Positions 50,681-62,660 of a DNA stretch of 64,000 nucleotides are shown in pieces. The DNA comes from Eledone cirrhosa. Its lineage: Eukaryota. The notes beneath the pieces are model-generated. The model did no database searches. It saw nothing but the letters and a program-made list of their open reading frames with translations, and was not told the origin of the DNA. Position numbers and translations under genes: made by a program. The first letter of the stretch is position 1; each line of letters begins with the position of its first letter. The stretch lies in the NCBI GenBank assembly GCA_964016885.1, contig OZ024740.1:333560001-333624000 (forward strand). Reading direction: 5' to 3'.

Positions 50681-52553
50681 ATGAAAAAGTGAGTCCTTCA
50701 TCAGTGACTCTCCAACCGTCCTCGGCATTTCATCGCTTTAAGGGCCATATGCCTCAGGTTGGTGCGAACAACGGCTAAAAAAAGTCGTTGGGACACGTAA
50801 ATAAAGGGGGACGCTAGAGTAACAACAAAAGGGTTTAAGCAACGGAAAGTGAGTAGAAATAGACAAGTCCCAGATCTCTATGAATATAAACTCTGTGAAA
50901 TCGTGAACAAGAGACGAAAGACCATCGAACCTGGTAGAAATGTGAGCAAGGAAAGAATTTCGCCCAAGTTTGACGGGGGGGGGGAAAGAGAGAGAGAGAG
51001 AGAGAAAGAAAAAGGAGAGAAGAGGAAGAAGAAGAAGAAGAAGAAGAAGAAGAAGAAGAAGAAGAAGAAGAAGAAGAAGATAAGGTGGTCTGGTCTACGA
51101 ATTCGGTAAACGCAAGTTTTGTGAAGTCGCAGACGAAAGAGAGAGAGAAAAAAATGTTTCATACCAGCTCGGTCAAGACTGCGCGAGAAAAGAATTACAC
51201 ACAGGTCAAACTTGAAGGAGGAGGAGGAAATAGGAGGAGGAGAGGTAGTGAAAGAGAATGAGTGAGTGAAAGTTGAGGAGAGAGTAACAGAGAGGGAGAC
51301 TGCTAGAAGTGGTAAAGATACAAGGAACGAAACAGACAGGCAGCATGGAAAAGTAATATGTGTAAATATGATGATAATAATGGAGCTGCGGCGTTGCAAA
51401 TGGGATACATATGAAAAAGTGAGTCCTTCATCAGTGACCCTCCAACCGTCCTCGGCATTTCATCGCTTTAAGGGCCATATGCCTCAGGTTGGTGCGAACA
51501 ACGGCTAAAAAAAGTCGTTGGGACACGTAAATAAAGGGGGACGCTAGAGTAACAACAAAAGGGTTTAAGCAACGGAAAGTGAGTAGAAATAGACAAGTCC
51601 CAGATCTCTATGAATATAAACTCTGTGAAATCGTGAACAAGAGACGAAAGACCATCGAACCTGGTAGAAATGTGAGCAAGGAAAGAATTTCGCCCAAGTT
51701 TGACGGGGGGGGGGGGAAGAGAGAGAGAGAGAGAGAAAGAAAAAGGAGAGAAGAGGAAGAAGAAGAAGAAGAAGAAGAAGAAGAAGAAGAAGAAGAAGAA
51801 GAAGAAGAAGAAGAAGAAGAAGAAGAAGATAAGGTGGTCTGGTCTACGAATTCGGTAAACGCAAGTTTTGTGAAGTCGCAGACGAAAGAGAGAGAGAAAA
51901 AAATTTTTCATACCAGCTCGGTCAAGACTGCGCGAGAAAAGAATTACACACAGGTCAAACTTGAAGGAGGAGGAGGAAAGAGGAGGAGGAGAGGTAGTGA
52001 CAGAGAATGAGTGAGTGAAAGTTGATGAGAGGGTAACAGAGAGGGAGACTGCTAGAAGTGGTAAAGATACAAGGAACGAAACAGACAGGCAGCATGGAAA
52101 AGTAATATGTGTAAATATGATGATAATAATGGAGCTGCGGCGTTGCAAATGGGATACATATGAAAAAGTGAGTCCTTCATCAGTGACCCTCCAACCGTCC
52201 TCGGCATTTCATCGCTTTAAGGGCCATATGCCTCAGGTTGGTGCGAACAACGGCTAAAAAAAGTCGTTGGGACACGTAAATAAAGGGGGACGCTAGAGTA
52301 ACAACAAAAGGGTTTAAGCAACGGAAAGTGAGTAGAAATAGACAAGTCCCAGATCTCTATGAATATAAACTCTGTGAAATCGTGAACAAGAGACGAAAGA
52401 CCATCGAACCTGGTAGAAATGTGAGCAAGGAAAGAATTTCGCCCAAGTTTGACGGGGGGGAAAAAAGAGAGAGAGAGAGAGAGAAAGAAAAAGGAGAGAA
52501 GAAGAAGAAGAAGAAGAAGAAGAAGAAGAAGAAGAAGAAGAAGAAGAAGATAA
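50681..52553 (-). repeat. Tandem array of ~2.5 non-coding units (730 and 749 bp), retrozyme-like
   Basis: Units start at 50681, 51411 and 52160. They are nearly identical except for G-run, (GA)n and (GAA)n lengths, and each carries the 102-nt structured motif. Confidence 0.92.
51423..51524 (-). ncRNA. Candidate permuted/pseudoknotted hammerhead ribozyme (other copies at 50693-50794 and 52172-52273)
   Basis: GTCC CAACGACT TTTTTT AGCCGTTG T TCGC A CCAACC TGA GGCAT A^ TGGCCCT TAAA GCGA T GAA ATGCC GAG GAC GGTTGG AGGGTCA CTGATGA A GGAC. Confidence 0.7.
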
Positions 52554-54451: not shown

Positions 54452-56321
54452 TAGTAGTAAGGTGTTCGATGTTGTGATAATGGTTAGCAGCGATGTGTGT
54501 CAAATGGCTATTAAGATAAGTGTGTGTGTGTATGTGTGTATAGCAGAGTAATTCATGGTGGCAGGGATGGTCAGTAAGAATGTGTCTGAAAGCAATGGGG
54601 GGTATTTTAGCATGTCAAAAGATATTTTTCAGCTTTTGTCTTATACGGAGAAGTGTGTGTGTGTGTGTGTATATATAAGTCTATTTGTATGTTGATGTAC
54701 GCGTGTGTATGGGTGTGTGTATATATATGTGTGTGTGTGTGTGTGTGGGTGGACCAGTATTTTTTCCCCCTGGTAAAATGGTGTACATTATTCAATTTTT
54801 TCAGTAAAATCGGTTCTCTTAAAAGAACATCAAAAATCTTAACAATAAAAGGTGTGAAATGATATTCACTATATATATATACACATACATATATTCACTA
54901 TATATATATATACATACACATATACATATATATATACATATATATGCACATATATTATTTTGTGTTGCACCATAGAGCATGTGTGTTTACGTATGTCATT
55001 GTGTTTATATGTGGGTAGAGATGTGTGCTGATGTAGGTATGTATGTTGACGTGTGTATGTTGTGGGTTCGTCTTAGGGAGAAGTGTTTAGACGGGGTCCG
55101 TATTTGTTAATGTAGTAAGATTCCTTGCTGATGCGCTGGGTGTGGGTGGCATTATCTTTAAATTTGTAGAGGGGAAAGATTCTGAAGTTGGGAAGATTTT
55201 GGGCGGCACAGGTATCAATGTGTTCACTCAGTGGTATTTTCCTGTATTCCCGTATTTTGATTTGAGATCTATGGACAGTCATGCGTTGGCGGAGGCTGTT
55301 TTTGGTCTGGCCTATGTATTGTTCTCGACAACCTGAACAGGTTAATGCATATATTAGATTTTCCGATGCACATGTGAAATTGTGTTTTGCTATAAAACGT
55401 TGTCCATCTTTGAAATAGAATTCCGAACCCTCTATTAGGTTGATGCAAATGCCACAGTTGGGTCTATCGCATTTTTTTACTGTGGGTTTCGTTGTTGTGA
55501 TTGGCAGTACTTTGGCATGTGTTAAGATGTTTTTCATTGACTTGGATTGTCTTTTGCTCTTTATTATATCGTGTGTTCGTAGAATTTGGTTCATTCTATG
55601 GTCCTTTTTCAATACAGGGATGTTCTGGAGGATGGTGTCAAAGGCCTCATTGTTGAGGGGGTTGTGTGTGGAGATGTATGGAAGAGCTTTTAGTTTTGGT
55701 TGATTTATTTTAGGGTGTCTAAGGTCCTGGGTACTGAGTTTTAGGGCACGTTGGATTCCATTGTCAATTAGTGATGCAGGGTAGTCCCTGCCTATGAGTG
55801 TGTCCTTTAGTTCTTGTAGCCGTAAGTAGCAGATGTTTTTATTGGAGACTATAGTACATATTCTCTTGGCTAAGTTGTAGGGAATATTAATTTTAACGTG
55901 TCTAGGGTGGCAAGAGTTGAAGGGGAGATATTGCTTGGAGTCTGTGGGCTTGTAGTATATGTCTGTTTCTATTTTTTTGTTATGGGTTTTAATGAGGATG
56001 TTGAGGAAGGGGAGTTGTTGATGGCTGTATTCCATCGTGAAGTTAATATTCGTGTTGAGCCCATTTATAAGGGTGTGAAATTCTTTAAGTTTCTCGATGT
56101 CTTCGTGCCAAAGGATGAAGCAGTCATCTAGATATCGCTTCCAGTTCCTTTCAATGTGTAAGTGGAGGGTGTTTCCAAATTTGTTTAGGACTTTAGTGTG
56201 GAGGGTGATTTCCAGGTATCCCATGACTAGGTTGGCATAAGTGGGGGCTGTTTTCGTTCCCATAGCGGTCCCAGATTTCTGCCTGTAGGGTTTGTTATTG
56301 AAAACAAAGTAATTGTTCTCC
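53867..56321 (-). mobile_element. 5'-truncated Penelope-like element (Neptune/Poseidon-type) with RT C-terminal half and GIY-YIG
   Basis: Open frame GTAMGTKTAPTYANL, WKRYLDD, YYKPTD...SCHP, CDRPNCGIC, NLIYALTCSGCREQYIGQT...RQRM. Long 3' UTR ending in (TA)n. Confidence 0.93.
55073..56320 (-). CDS. PLE RT/GIY-YIG ORF, 5'-truncated
   Basis: Uninterrupted part of the 448-aa track ORF. The first ~33 aa come from the inverted UTR arm and are not genuine. Confidence 0.85.
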   Translation of the reverse strand, partial: ENNYFVFNNKPYRQKSGTAMGTKTAPTYANLVMGYLEITLHTKVLNKFGNTLHLHIERNWKRYLDDCFILWHEDIEKLKEFHTLINGLNTNINFTMEYSHQQLPFLNILIKTHNKKIETDIYYKPTDSKQYLPFNSCHPRHVKINIPYNLAKRICTIVSNKNICYLRLQELKDTLIGRDYPASLIDNGIQRALKLSTQDLRHPKINQPKLKALPYISTHNPLNNEAFDTILQNIPVLKKDHRMNQILRTHDIIKSKRQSKSMKNILTHAKVLPITTTKPTVKKCDRPNCGICINLIEGSEFYFKDGQRFIAKHNFTCASENLIYALTCSGCREQYIGQTKNSLRQRMTVHRSQIKIREYRKIPLSEHIDTCAAQNLPNFRIFPLYKFKDNATHTQRISKESYYINKYGPRLNTSP

Positions 56322-56698
56322 ACTGGAGCCACTTTTTTAACATAAAAATATTCTTGGCGCAAAATCAATTTTTTACATTCACATGACCTCTTTTTATTCA
56401 TGTGACCTCTACCGACCAATCAAAATTGTTTTGACCACAAGAATTTTTGCAAATTGGAGCCACTTTTTTAACATAAAAACAGGTAGAATTCCCAAATCTA
56501 ATCAGATCAGAGCAAACAGCACGGACACTCTATCTCAAAATTATTTTTGAAAAGCATTTAGAAATGCTCAACCGGTAAAAACTTAAAAACTTAAAACCAC
56601 AACTGAATACTAACCCATACAATCACTAATACTCTTTTATTCCTAATTAAACCATTTTTCAACTGTGAACAATTTGTCAGCCTTTTCTATTCCGTTTA

Positions 56699-57835: not shown

Positions 57836-58221
57836 TGATAGTAAGTGTTTAATTAGTACGATGCCGAATGATATCCACAGCTTAAGTTATTAATTTCTGC
57901 GAATCATTGACGTAAACAATCATTAACATTTAAAATAATCCAATACGTTACATATAGAATCGTGCGACATATCATATGGCAGATAAATCTAGAAGCATAA
58001 CATTTTCACACTAAATAACAATAGGTAAATAAGTAAAAAAACCTATATGTATATGAATATGAGCATTCATAAATATCTAAATGTAATTACTACATATGTA
58101 ACATTGCAAATATTCTATAAATACTTATGTGTACAAATAGATCCTAGGATTAACCGGATATCTTACCACACGTATATATATATATATACGTGTGGTAAGA
58201 TATATATAATCTGGGACCACT

Positions 58222-59412
58222 ATGGGAACGAAAACAGCCCCCACTTATGCCAACCTAGTCATGGGATACCTGGAAATCACCCTCCACACTAAAGTCGTAA
58301 ACAAATTTGGAAACACTCTCCACTTACACATAGAAAGGAACTGCAAGCGATATCTAGATGACTTCTTCATCCTTTGGCACGAAGACATCGAGAAACTTAA
58401 AGAATTTCACACCCTTATAAATGGGCTCAACACGAATATTAACTTCACGATGGAATACAGCCATCAACAACTCCCCTTCCTCAACATCCTCATTAAAACC
58501 CATAACAAAAAAATAGAAACAGACATATACTACAAGCCCACAGACTCCAAGCAATATCTTCCTTTCAACTCTTGCCACCCTAGACACGTTAAAATTAATA
58601 TTCCCTACAACTTAGCCAAGAGAATCTGTACTATAGTCTCCAATAAAAACACCTGCTACTTACGGCTACAAGAACTAAAGGACACACTCATAGGCAGGGA
58701 CTACCCTGCATCACTAATTGACAATGGAATCCAACGTGCCCTAAAACTCAGTACCCAGGACCTTAGACACGCTAAAGTAAATCAACCGAAACTAAAAGCT
58801 CTTCCATACATCTCCACACACAACTCCCTCAACAATGAGGCCTTTGACACCATCCTCCAGAACATCCCTGTGTTGAAAAAGGACCATAGAATGAACCAAA
58901 TCCTACGAACACACGATATCATAAAGAGCAAAAGACAATCCAAGTCAATGAAAAACATCCTAACACATGCCAAAGTACTGCCAACCACAACAACGAAACC
59001 CACAGTAAAAAAATGCGATAGACCCGACTGTGGCATTTGCATTAACCTAATAGAGGGTTCGGAATTCTATTTCAAAGAAGGACAACGTTTTATAGTAAAA
59101 CACAATTTCACATGTGCATCGGAAAATCTAATATATGTATTAACTTGCTCAGGTTGTCGGGAACAATACATAGGCCAGACCAAAAACAGCCTCCGCCAAC
59201 GCATGACTGTCCATAGATCCCAAATTAAAATACGGGAATACAGGAAAATACCACTGAGTGAACACATTGATACCTGTGCCGCCCAATATCATCTCAACTT
59301 CAGAATCTTTCCCCTCTACAAATTTACAGATAATGCCACCCACACCCAGCGCATCAGCAAGGAATCTTACTTTATTAACAAATACGGACCCCGTCTAAAC
59401 ACTTCTCCCTAA
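58222..59412 (+). CDS. PLE RT/GIY-YIG ORF, 5'-truncated (396 aa)
   Basis: MGTKTAPTYANL...RYLDD...NLIYVLTCSGCREQYIGQT...ESYFINKY. Confidence 0.85.
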   Translation: MGTKTAPTYANLVMGYLEITLHTKVVNKFGNTLHLHIERNCKRYLDDFFILWHEDIEKLKEFHTLINGLNTNINFTMEYSHQQLPFLNILIKTHNKKIETDIYYKPTDSKQYLPFNSCHPRHVKINIPYNLAKRICTIVSNKNTCYLRLQELKDTLIGRDYPASLIDNGIQRALKLSTQDLRHAKVNQPKLKALPYISTHNSLNNEAFDTILQNIPVLKKDHRMNQILRTHDIIKSKRQSKSMKNILTHAKVLPTTTTKPTVKKCDRPDCGICINLIEGSEFYFKEGQRFIVKHNFTCASENLIYVLTCSGCREQYIGQTKNSLRQRMTVHRSQIKIREYRKIPLSEHIDTCAAQYHLNFRIFPLYKFTDNATHTQRISKESYFINKYGPRLNTSP

Positions 59413-61321: not shown

Positions 61322-61400
<79 letters not shown>

Positions 61401-61407
<7 letters not shown>

Positions 61408-62660
61408 TACTTGTCCCCCTCGCCTTACGCGAATTCTGGTCCCATTAACTATTTTTAGTTATTGCTCGCACCAACCTTAGGTATCTGATTTTTAATGCGA
61501 TGAAATACCAATGATGGTTGGAAAATCACCGACAAAGGACTATTTTTATCATATGTAACCCATGTGCAAACCACGCAGTATTCTTCTTTCTTCTCAGGTT
61601 TTTATATATATTTACCTCGGCTGCGTTTGTCTGTTTCTCTCTTACTGCTTCCCCGCTCTCTTTGTTTCTCTAACCTTCTTTCGCCCCCTCTGTGAGTTAC
61701 AATTTCTCTCGACTGACCTCTTCCACACACTTCCACTCACTCACTCCCTATTTCTCCCCTTCTCACTTCCTCCCGTTTGGCTTGTGTGGGTCTCTTCTTG
61801 CTCACATCTCACACACTTCAACACGGTCTGTACTTCTCTCGCTCATGAAATCCACCCAGCTTATGATGACCGGACAACCATGTTGCTTGTTTATTTTCCT
61901 ATCTTCGGTTTGCTTTTATCCTTCTATGTTGCTTACTTTCCCCCCTCGCATTACGCGAATTCTGGTCCCAATAACTTTTTCTAGTTATTGCTCGCACCAG
62001 CCTGAGATATCTGATTTTTAATGCGATGAAATACCAATGATGGTTGGAAAATCACCGACGAAGGACTATTTTTATCATATGTAACCCATGTGCAAACCAC
62101 GCAGTATTCTTCTTTCTTCTCATGTTTTTTATATATATTTACCTCGGCTGCGTTTGTCTGTTTCTCTCTTACTGCTTCCCCGTTCTCTCTGTTTCTCTCA
62201 CCTTCTTTCGCCCCTCTGTGAGTTACACTTTCTCTCGACTGACCTCTTCCACACACTTCCACTCATTCACTCCCTGTTTCTCCCCTTCTCACTTCCTCCC
62301 GTTTGGCTTGTGTGGGTCTCTTCTTGCTCACATCTCACACACATTAACACGGTCTGTACTTCTCTCGCTCATGAAATCCACCCAGCTTATACTGACCGGA
62401 CAAACATGTTGCTTGTTTATTTTCCTATCTTCGGTTTTCTTTTATCCTTCTATGTTGTTTACTTTTCCCCCTCGCCTTACGCGAATTCTGGTCCCAATAA
62501 CTTTTTTTAGTTATTGCTCGCACCAGCCTGAAACATCTGATTTTTAATGCGATGAAATACCAATGATGGTTGGAAAATCACCGACGAAGGACTATTTTTA
62601 TCATATGTAACCCATGTGCAAACCGCGCAGTATTCTTCTTTCTTCTCATGTTTTTTATAT
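61401..62660 (+). repeat. Tandem array of ~2.4 non-coding 526-bp units, retrozyme-like
   Basis: Motif copies at 61439, 61965 and 62491 (period 526). Pyrimidine-rich body with (TA)n on both sides. Confidence 0.92.
61965..62066 (+). ncRNA. Candidate permuted/pseudoknotted hammerhead ribozyme (other copies at 61439-61540 and 62491-62592)
   Basis: GTCC CAATAACT TTTTCT AGTTATTG C TCGC A CCAGCC TGA GATAT C^ TGATTTT TAAT GCGA T GAA ATACC AAT GAT GGTTGG AAAATCA CCGACGA A GGAC. Confidence 0.65.

Follow-up and report, generated by a model that had tools for sequence, protein, structure and literature searches.

Kink turns, type-SGC hammerheads and Naiad elements

Standard simple k-turns, such as Kt-7 and those of SAM-I, box C/D and U4, resemble the junction described here in having a 3-nt bulge next to G·A and A·G pairs, a C:G pair at position -1, a purine at L2 and a non-Watson-Crick 3b·3n pair (PMC4382518, PMC8191799, PMC5689011, PMC5061560, PMC4914095). 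The commonest non-standard type has U at 2n, as in Kt-23 (PMC5061560), and the same variant was found here in one family (F5) and in two single copies. RNase P, with a k-turn or pk-turn, and the lysine riboswitch have a fixed kink site occupied by interchangeable motifs (PMC5061560), as is the case here; those are different RNAs, and here the swap is among sister families inside one genome. Unlike in known k-turns, the C helix here is stem III of a hammerhead ribozyme, two pairs past the cleavage-site helix. A search of titles and abstracts for hammerhead together with kink-turn, in a collection that mostly excludes subscription journals, returned no natural hammerhead with a k-turn.

Type-SGC hammerheads, i.e. 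HRIMA-1 and its variants (Eckert et al. 2023, PMC10085705), share with the repeat the S-G-C order of blocks, the CUGANGA / GAAA / UH core, a short linker from stem I to the stem II side and an extra helix that ties stems I and II. They are metatranscriptome RNAs with a linker of 0-44 nt after stem III, and the available parts of the text and supplement mention no kink, whereas the ribozyme described here belongs to an animal genomic repeat, its linker pairs 5′ of block S through the k-turn, and its stem II opens out to form a junction with a strand that lies upstream. In the literature searched, the term 'type-SGC' was used only in that paper, where the connection from the far end of stem III to stems I and II was called not obviously compatible and was left open.

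The repeat also has relatives among retroelements. Naiad elements, which are Penelope-like elements (PLEs), target (TA)n and reportedly contain no canonical hammerhead, with half cores occurring in some of them (Craig et al. 2021, PMC8557442). Common to these elements and the repeat are the (TA)n targets, tandem or inverted truncated copies and, in several consensuses, a 3′ layout of helices a-b-c-d followed by the S-G-C blocks; the repeat differs in having no assignable coding frame, and other Naiads use other junctions or, in nematodes, the ordinary block order. Non-LTR retrozymes (bioRxiv 10.64898/2026.07.22.740005) likewise consist of non-coding tandem units with one hammerhead each and originate from PLE ends. 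In the available part of that source they are defined by, and treated only for, type I hammerheads, and the S-G-C order places the present repeat outside that definition.

The repeat arrays and the predicted ribozyme

The window, i.e. the whole 64-kb stretch that was analysed (C1:333,560,001-333,624,000 of the 3.0-Gb, microsatellite-rich genome of Eledone cirrhosa), contains two tandem arrays. Array A (50681..52553, minus strand) has three ribozyme copies spaced 730 and 749 nt apart, with (TA)n at the ribozyme-3′ end. The junction at 51442-51492 belongs to the middle copy, and the k-turns of the other two copies have 1b at 50720 and 52199 on the same strand. Array B (61400..62655, plus strand) comprises three decayed copies with a spacing of 526 nt and (TA)n on its flanks. 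Units of the repeat measure ~490-770 nt and occur both in tandem and as inverted pairs, and the open reading frames listed for the unit are low-complexity read-throughs. Comparison of the 64-kb window with Rfam gave no match. Outside the window, family A forms a long tandem array of ~730-nt units (G000:C2:54,547,255-54,566,338) with at least 16 ribozyme copies identical to the query. The window further includes inverted, near-identical stretches encoding a Penelope-like reverse transcriptase and GIY-YIG (448 and 400 codons at ~55075-56420 on the minus strand and 58210-59410 on the plus strand), and other PLE and LINE fragments at 11.2, 16.1-17.4 and 36-41 kb.

On the minus strand of array A, the segments follow in the order helix a strand, hairpin b, helix c strand, A, CCAACC, UGA, GGCAU, A and stem I, and after stem I UAAA, GCGA, U, GAAA, UGCC, GAG, GA, C, GGUUGG, AGGGUCA, CUGAUGA, A and GGAC. 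The cleavage block is followed by GAAA and then by CUGAUGA, which is the non-circular order S-G-C of the type-SGC hammerheads, and the core is intact. The 5′ domain at 51494..51524, made up of the helix a strand GUCC, hairpin b and the helix c strand UCGC, is predicted to form a four-way junction replacing a simple stem II, and its layout matches, by eye, that of published Octopus and Acropora Naiad ends (PMC8557442). Next come the helix d 5′ strand CCAACC (51487..51492), which is the NC arm of the k-turn, the non-bulged k-turn strand (51484..51486) and the stem III 3′ strand GGCAU (51479..51483), which is the C helix of the k-turn and ends in U16.1. By analogy with the hammerhead core, cleavage is predicted at AUA/U (51477..51478), with A at 51478 as H17; in 17/17 hand-picked copies H17 is A, C or U and never G.

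The 5′ strand of stem I, UGGCCCU, lies at 51471..51477, and three pairs of this stem are changed on both sides between arrays A and B. Block G (51454..51466) consists of the helix c 3′ strand GCGA, U11.1, GAAA and the stem III 5′ strand. It is followed by the bulged k-turn strand (51448..51453), by the helix d 3′ strand GGUUGG (51442..51447), which has no linker before stem I, and by block C (51423..51441) with the stem I 3′ strand AGGGUCA, CUGAUGA, A10.1 and GGAC, the last being the 3′ strand of helix a. A stem II formed directly between the flanks of CUGANGA and GAAA would have at most one pair (A-U or G-C), and these flanking strands pair with the upstream strand instead of each other. In an F1 subfamily (L435-L446, L451 and L458) the pair beside the core covaries, being G10.1-C11.1 there and A10.1-U11.1 in most F1 copies. 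F2 and Acropora have A at 10.1 and C at 11.1, so stem II is wired differently there.

Pairing is retained in 99/102 cells of stem I and 81/85 of stem III among the 17 hand-picked copies, and in 97/102 cells of helix d with 21 pair types (shuffle mean 55, maximum 67), even though the helix d sequences of these copies share little. Each of the three helices exceeded all 2000 shuffles, a margin that related sequences can also reach. One subfamily (L144, L154 and L159) has a fixed C·A mismatch in helix d, and another group (L137, L138, L147, L158 and L162) has A·C at 4b·4n plus A·A at 3b·3n fixed; both may represent ribozymes that are weak or dead and yet continue to spread.

The 3′ ribozyme layout, as in published Naiad ends (supplement of PMC8557442, by eye), and the insertion into (TA)n link the repeat to Naiad elements. 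A motif scan of the fetched loci found no Naiad-type open reading frame beside the ribozyme, so that the RNA layout and the (TA)n target are what ties the repeat to Naiad. Among metagenome and viral contigs searched with loose patterns, 8 of the 238 matches listed pass a crude stem filter, most look coding, and none has the layout; thus, these matches provide no outside homologue. Of 45 non-full rows considered for insertion ends, 7 (from 6 loci) start at 51477-51481, which is confounded by AT microhomology with (TA)n, and the rows include some internal indels. Exact fold-backs at the predicted cut occur at only 2 loci genome-wide. Neither the ends nor the fold-backs were counted as evidence for cleavage.

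Hammerhead motifs of the ordinary order occur nearby as well. A Penelope-like element (L162 -4102, L163 -4055, L074 -2679, L175 -1553 and L124 -1512) carries an ordinary-order mini hammerhead, CUGAUGA-A-GGAC ... GUCC-GAAA, whose letters match those at helix a of the SGC ribozyme, a likeness that may reflect chance or a shared origin. By a crude scan, hammerhead-like motifs in the ordinary order (CUGANGA, stem II, GAAA) also lie close to Penelope-like frames in the window, at +14741, +46075, -45952 and +6869.

The k-turn signature and alternative junctions

The initial annotation had placed a standard k-turn between stem III and the CCAACC/GGUUGG helix, and the minus-strand sequence from 51492 to 51442 fits the published definition (PMC8191799), in that two helices flank a 3-nt bulge and the G·A and A·G pairs after it. 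One strand reads CCAACC (51492-51487), UGA (51486-51484) and GGCAU (51483-51479), and the other AUGCC (51458-51454), GAG (51453-51451), GAC (51450-51448) and GGUUGG (51447-51442). In Lilley numbering, stem III is the C helix, -1b:-1n is C:G, L1-L3 are G, A and G, 1b·1n is G·A, 2b·2n is A·G, 3b·3n is C·U and 4b-4n is G-C.

The complete motif of 5 bp, k-turn and 6 bp occurs three times in the 64-kb window, always on the minus strand (1b at 52199, 51450 and 50720) and never on the plus strand, and it was absent from 300 dinucleotide shuffles of the 749-nt unit. Looser patterns of 3 bp, k-turn and 3 bp are common in the window (99 and 75 on the two strands), and the motif therefore carries weight only in its long form and in its context. 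No k-turn pattern is present on the plus strand of 51400-51540, and the assertion that the k-turn is confined to the strand with the hammerhead core was thus borne out. Minimum free energy folding recovers helix d and stem III with a 3x6 loop (z -2.07 for 51440-51495); for the 113-nt region, z is -0.96 under a method that cannot model the pseudoknot.

Block C has 13,891 exact matches in the genome (control 167). When the six positions of the bulged strand were left free, 8617 matches were obtained, 8441 of them with GA at 1b-2b, and GA on the non-bulged strand was counted by eye in 97 of the first 100 listed of 3983 matches. All four G/A positions are intact in 134 of 146 distinct copies from the fetched loci (2n is G in 139 and 1n is A in 141), and the adjoining pair is conserved too, with C at -1b in 143 and G at -1n in 136. 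The positions L1, L2, L3, 3b and 3n have two to four common states each, 3n being U, G, A or C. This is the signature expected of a k-turn, in which the G/A positions are kept and the loop and 3b·3n are variable. Contigs of four sequencing runs, of unrecorded kind, vary at L1-L3, 3b and 3n and, among the rows listed, at none of the four G/A sites; these are a lead only.

Conservation in a young repeat may simply be inherited, with the G and A residues kept by some other contact or by chance and no k-turn fold being formed. Indeed, 70 of 105 columns are invariant within F1, so the invariance of the four positions taken alone is weak (p near 0.2). Each of the five free junction positions is among the 35 columns that vary at the subfamily level, and the four G/A positions all lie outside them; this five-versus-four split, with a chance of 1 in 126 by permutation within those nine positions, is stronger. 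Inheritance is also suggested by family F2, which keeps GA on the bulged strand inside Watson-Crick pairs. However, free and fixed positions divide exactly as in k-turns across families with unrelated flanking helices, and the rules of k-turn prediction held for four new k-turns (PMC8191799). Inherited conservation with no k-turn fold is regarded as very unlikely.

Sister families were recovered with the pattern CGAAA-N23-CUGANGA, which gave 3578 matches (control 2149), 2601 of which have GA at 1b-2b (control 26), and which includes families with unrelated helix d sequences. The 5/3/9 register is partly built into this 23-nt pattern, the spacings covered overall being those of 18-23 nt. Among the 17 hand-picked copies, 13 have G·A at 1b·1n and 16 have a purine at L2, and the 2b·2n pair is A·G in 9, A·U in 5 and A·C in 3; the pick that represents F1b is a mutant (2n = C), the majority of family B having UGA. 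Families F2, F3 and F6 were sorted by patterns that fix the 1b and 2b letters, and for them the non-bulged strands only are unbiased. Family counts refer to copies with an intact 5′ part (10/22 in F2, 8/24 in F3, 8/10 in F5 and 2/3 in F6).

Standard k-turns are present in F1, F3 and four single-copy lineages, and U at 2n in F5 (8/8 intact copies) and two single copies. The F6 junction has A·A and A·C, with the two key adenines kept and both guanines lost. In F2, AUC pairs with GAU in Watson-Crick fashion, leaving a plain 3-nt bulge in the same register (9 AUC and 1 AUU in the 10 intact copies of 22). A reading of F2 itself as a k-turn was rejected, as it needs a 5-nt bulge and a 3-bp stem III. 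Other F2 branches have a bulge on the opposite strand, and the F14 junction is a 3x4 loop. Reverse-polarity k-turns were also considered for the F2b and F2c branches and for one Naiad record (PMC8557442), and by eye they do not fit. Searches at spacings of 18-22 gave 528 matches (control 228), mostly F2 branches with the opposite-strand bulge, plus F14. No k-turn family at another spacing was found among the loci read from these searches, and lineages without a k-turn have spacings that vary from 21 to 25 nt.

Published Naiad ends show a comparable range of junctions (PMC8557442; all by eye). In Naiad_Ovul and in the record that precedes it, which by table order is Obim, the a-b-c-d-SGC layout recurs, together with a k-turn of UGA and A(A/G)U-GA-U, a 5-bp stem III and the 23-nt spacing, but the helices are different. 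Other records with the S-G-C order have a 7-nt bulge (three Acropora records), a 3-nt bulge lacking tandem G·A and a 5-nt bulge on the opposite strand (two records), three-way junctions (Beroe and one further record), a 1-nt bulge (one record) or a decayed loop (Euprymna), and in one arthropod record stem III and helix d are almost straight. A k-turn was thus seen in ~2 of 11 SGC-type records read, a subset of 54 ends, and nematode Naiads have the ordinary block order. An arachnid-range end in File S5 has the S-G-C order with a post-stem III linker that pairs downstream of the C block, nearer to the HRIMA-1 arrangement.

The same register is kept in families with unrelated helix d sequences and in the Octopus Naiad ends, and for this reason the junction at 51442-51492 is very likely a real k-turn by its sequence signature and a hinge that closes the pseudoknot within one monomer. 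Conservation of GA/GA among homologues, proposed at the outset as the check on the k-turn, was found in several families with unrelated helix d as well as within F1, with exceptions: F1, F3 and the four single-copy lineages retain both pairs, whereas F2 and F14 lack the motif. F2, its branches and F14 have no fixed kink of this kind, so such a kink is not needed in all relatives. On this reading, the hinge position is general in the ribozyme lineage and the k-turn is its commonest form here, though not the sole one. The suggestion that the k-turn is what makes the permuted hammerhead possible is not supported, since sister SGC families have a plain bulge, an opposite-strand bulge or a 3x4 loop, most Naiad ends have other junctions, and the validated SGC ribozymes have a 0-44 nt linker with a kink unmentioned in the available parts of their description (PMC10085705).

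Ion folding, protein binding and closure of the fold

By the rules of McPhee et al. (PMC4382518), the values for 3b·3n are 0.56 for A·G and C·C, 0.51 for C·U and U·G, 0.41 for U·U and 0.24 for A·A. Among the 146 copies, 3b·3n is C·U in 46, U·G in 32, U·U in 31, A·G in 15, A·A in 9, C·C in 6 and others in 7. Pairs that fold in Mg2+ alone (good or moderate by these rules) are present in 132 copies (101 if 3b and 3n were independent) and Watson-Crick pairs in 3 (38 if independent), counts that are suggestive only, since the copies are non-independent and only ~5 changes separate the six states. The A·A subfamily is a poor ion folder by the same rules. A C:G pair at -1b:-1n favours ion folding, and a G:C pair, as in archaeal box C/D, blocks it (PMC5689011); the repeat has C:G and not the G:C of protein-dependent box C/D k-turns. 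A G-C pair at 4b-4n lowers ion folding (PMC5689011), and the junction at 51442-51492 has this pair. The look-up for 3b·3n assigns U·U and A·G to N3 and U·G to N1 (PMC4914095), so the exact k-turn class is not conserved among copies. Taken together, the k-turn at 51442-51492 is likely to fold in Mg2+ without protein.

The initial annotation had further described the loop of the 61-kb family, array B, as box C/D-like. AAU-GAU is present in all three copies of this array, and none is intact on both strands: in B1 (helix d and k-turn at 61471-61521, plus strand) UUA replaces UGA and the core is altered, in B2 and B3 stem III is mismatched, and all three have CCGAC where CUGAN is expected. The commonest B sequence genome-wide, found in 28 of 163 segments from overlapping loci, is intact and reads CCUGAGG ... 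AAUGAUGG followed by CUGACGA. The box C/D consensus comprises box C (RUGAUGA), box D (CUGA) and a U·U pair at 3b·3n. The B majority agrees with it at 6/7 positions of box C and 4/4 of box D, and to that extent the B loop resembles box C/D. The copy at 51442-51492 has a GAG loop and C·U, and U·U is the state of 31/146 copies.

A protein-gated switch would be another reading of this conservation, Snu13/15.5K or another L7Ae-family protein binding the k-turn and raising or lowering cleavage in the cell. G1b and G2n, which L7Ae contacts, and the purine at L2 are kept in most families, the box C/D-like U·U at 3b·3n with L3 = U occurs in B, F3 and the Octopus Naiads (PMC8557442), nearly all standard k-turns bind L7Ae in vitro (PMC8191799), and a helper protein was suggested by Eckert et al. 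for slow SGC ribozymes (PMC10085705). However, C:G at -1b:-1n and the 3b·3n pairs favour ion folding, i.e. the protein-independent pattern, F5 lacks G2n (8/8 intact copies), F6 lacks both guanines, and F2 and F14 lack the motif. In addition, L3 is G in the 51442-51492 copy and varies among U, G, C and A across the repeat. These features give no support to dependence on Snu13/15.5K, and protein gating is considered quite unlikely as the main role of the k-turn.

Stem III (5 bp) runs through the k-turn into helix d (6 bp). Between the 3′ strand of helix d and stem I there are 0-2 unpaired bases, and on the side of stem II a single nucleotide separates the 5′ strand of this helix from helix c. 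A monomer would therefore require the stem III-helix d arm to come back with its end at the distal ends of stems I and II. With a toy vector model, which is rough and uses generic helix angles, the remaining gap is 14-23 Å at a bend of 50 degrees (best azimuth), 29-40 Å at 90, 42-52 Å at 120 and 57-65 Å when straight. Within this geometry, a sharp bend at the stem III/helix d junction would be needed to close the fold in cis; of the original claim, the bend would remain and the k-turn itself is replaceable in relatives.

We consider it reasonably probable that a protein-independent k-turn is the hinge that lets this type-SGC hammerhead close in cis within one repeat unit. Stem III would be directed away from stems I and II, and the 9-pair NC arm would have to fold back by ~130 degrees. 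The k-turn would fix this bend, and helix d would then brace stems I and II, like the loop-loop contact of ordinary hammerheads. Transcripts of a tandem array would be cut once per unit to give unit-length RNA, which a Penelope-like (Naiad-type) reverse transcriptase may then insert into (TA)n. In families that lack a k-turn, a flexible bulge may be forced into a tight bend, or the ribozymes may form domain-swapped dimers that need no kink.

Such dimers of neighbouring units could also be the main mode of the ribozyme in this repeat. Pairing would then join blocks S and G of one copy to block C and helices a-c of its partner, antiparallel rods would be formed by stem III with helix d, and the junction would be flexible or vestigial, the k-turn biasing folding or permitting a monomer route. 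The occurrence of units in tandem and in inverted pairs is consistent with dimers, as is the failure of the straight or weakly bent junctions of relatives to close in cis in the toy model. PLE mini-hammerheads reportedly cleave as dimers (Lunse 2017). However, straight rods would favour neither tandem G·A pairs nor a single register, and both are kept in several families and in the Octopus Naiads (PMC8557442). Dimerisation as the main mode is judged unlikely, and closure in cis through the k-turn is preferred.

By its sequence signature the k-turn at this locus is real; it probably folds with ions alone, and other motifs can take its place. The ribozyme would be a natural hammerhead that contains a k-turn, of which there is none in the literature searched. 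A hinge at a fixed place offers a concrete answer to the question left by Eckert et al. (PMC10085705), and the ribozyme reported missing from Naiad elements (PMC8557442) is now tied to a known architectural motif. The sister families provide a natural panel of variants, with a standard k-turn, U at 2n, A·A/A·C, a plain bulge and an opposite-strand bulge, and they raise the question whether a host k-turn-binding protein touches the self-cleavage of a retroelement. A bolder proposal, which we hold to be speculative and rather doubtful, is that the k-turn was the evolutionary switch from a dimeric, domain-swapped to a monomeric permuted hammerhead and in addition provided a handle for L7Ae-family proteins on retroelement RNA cleavage. 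If true, the sister families in this one genome would form a natural series of monomeric, dimeric and protein-tuned ribozymes.
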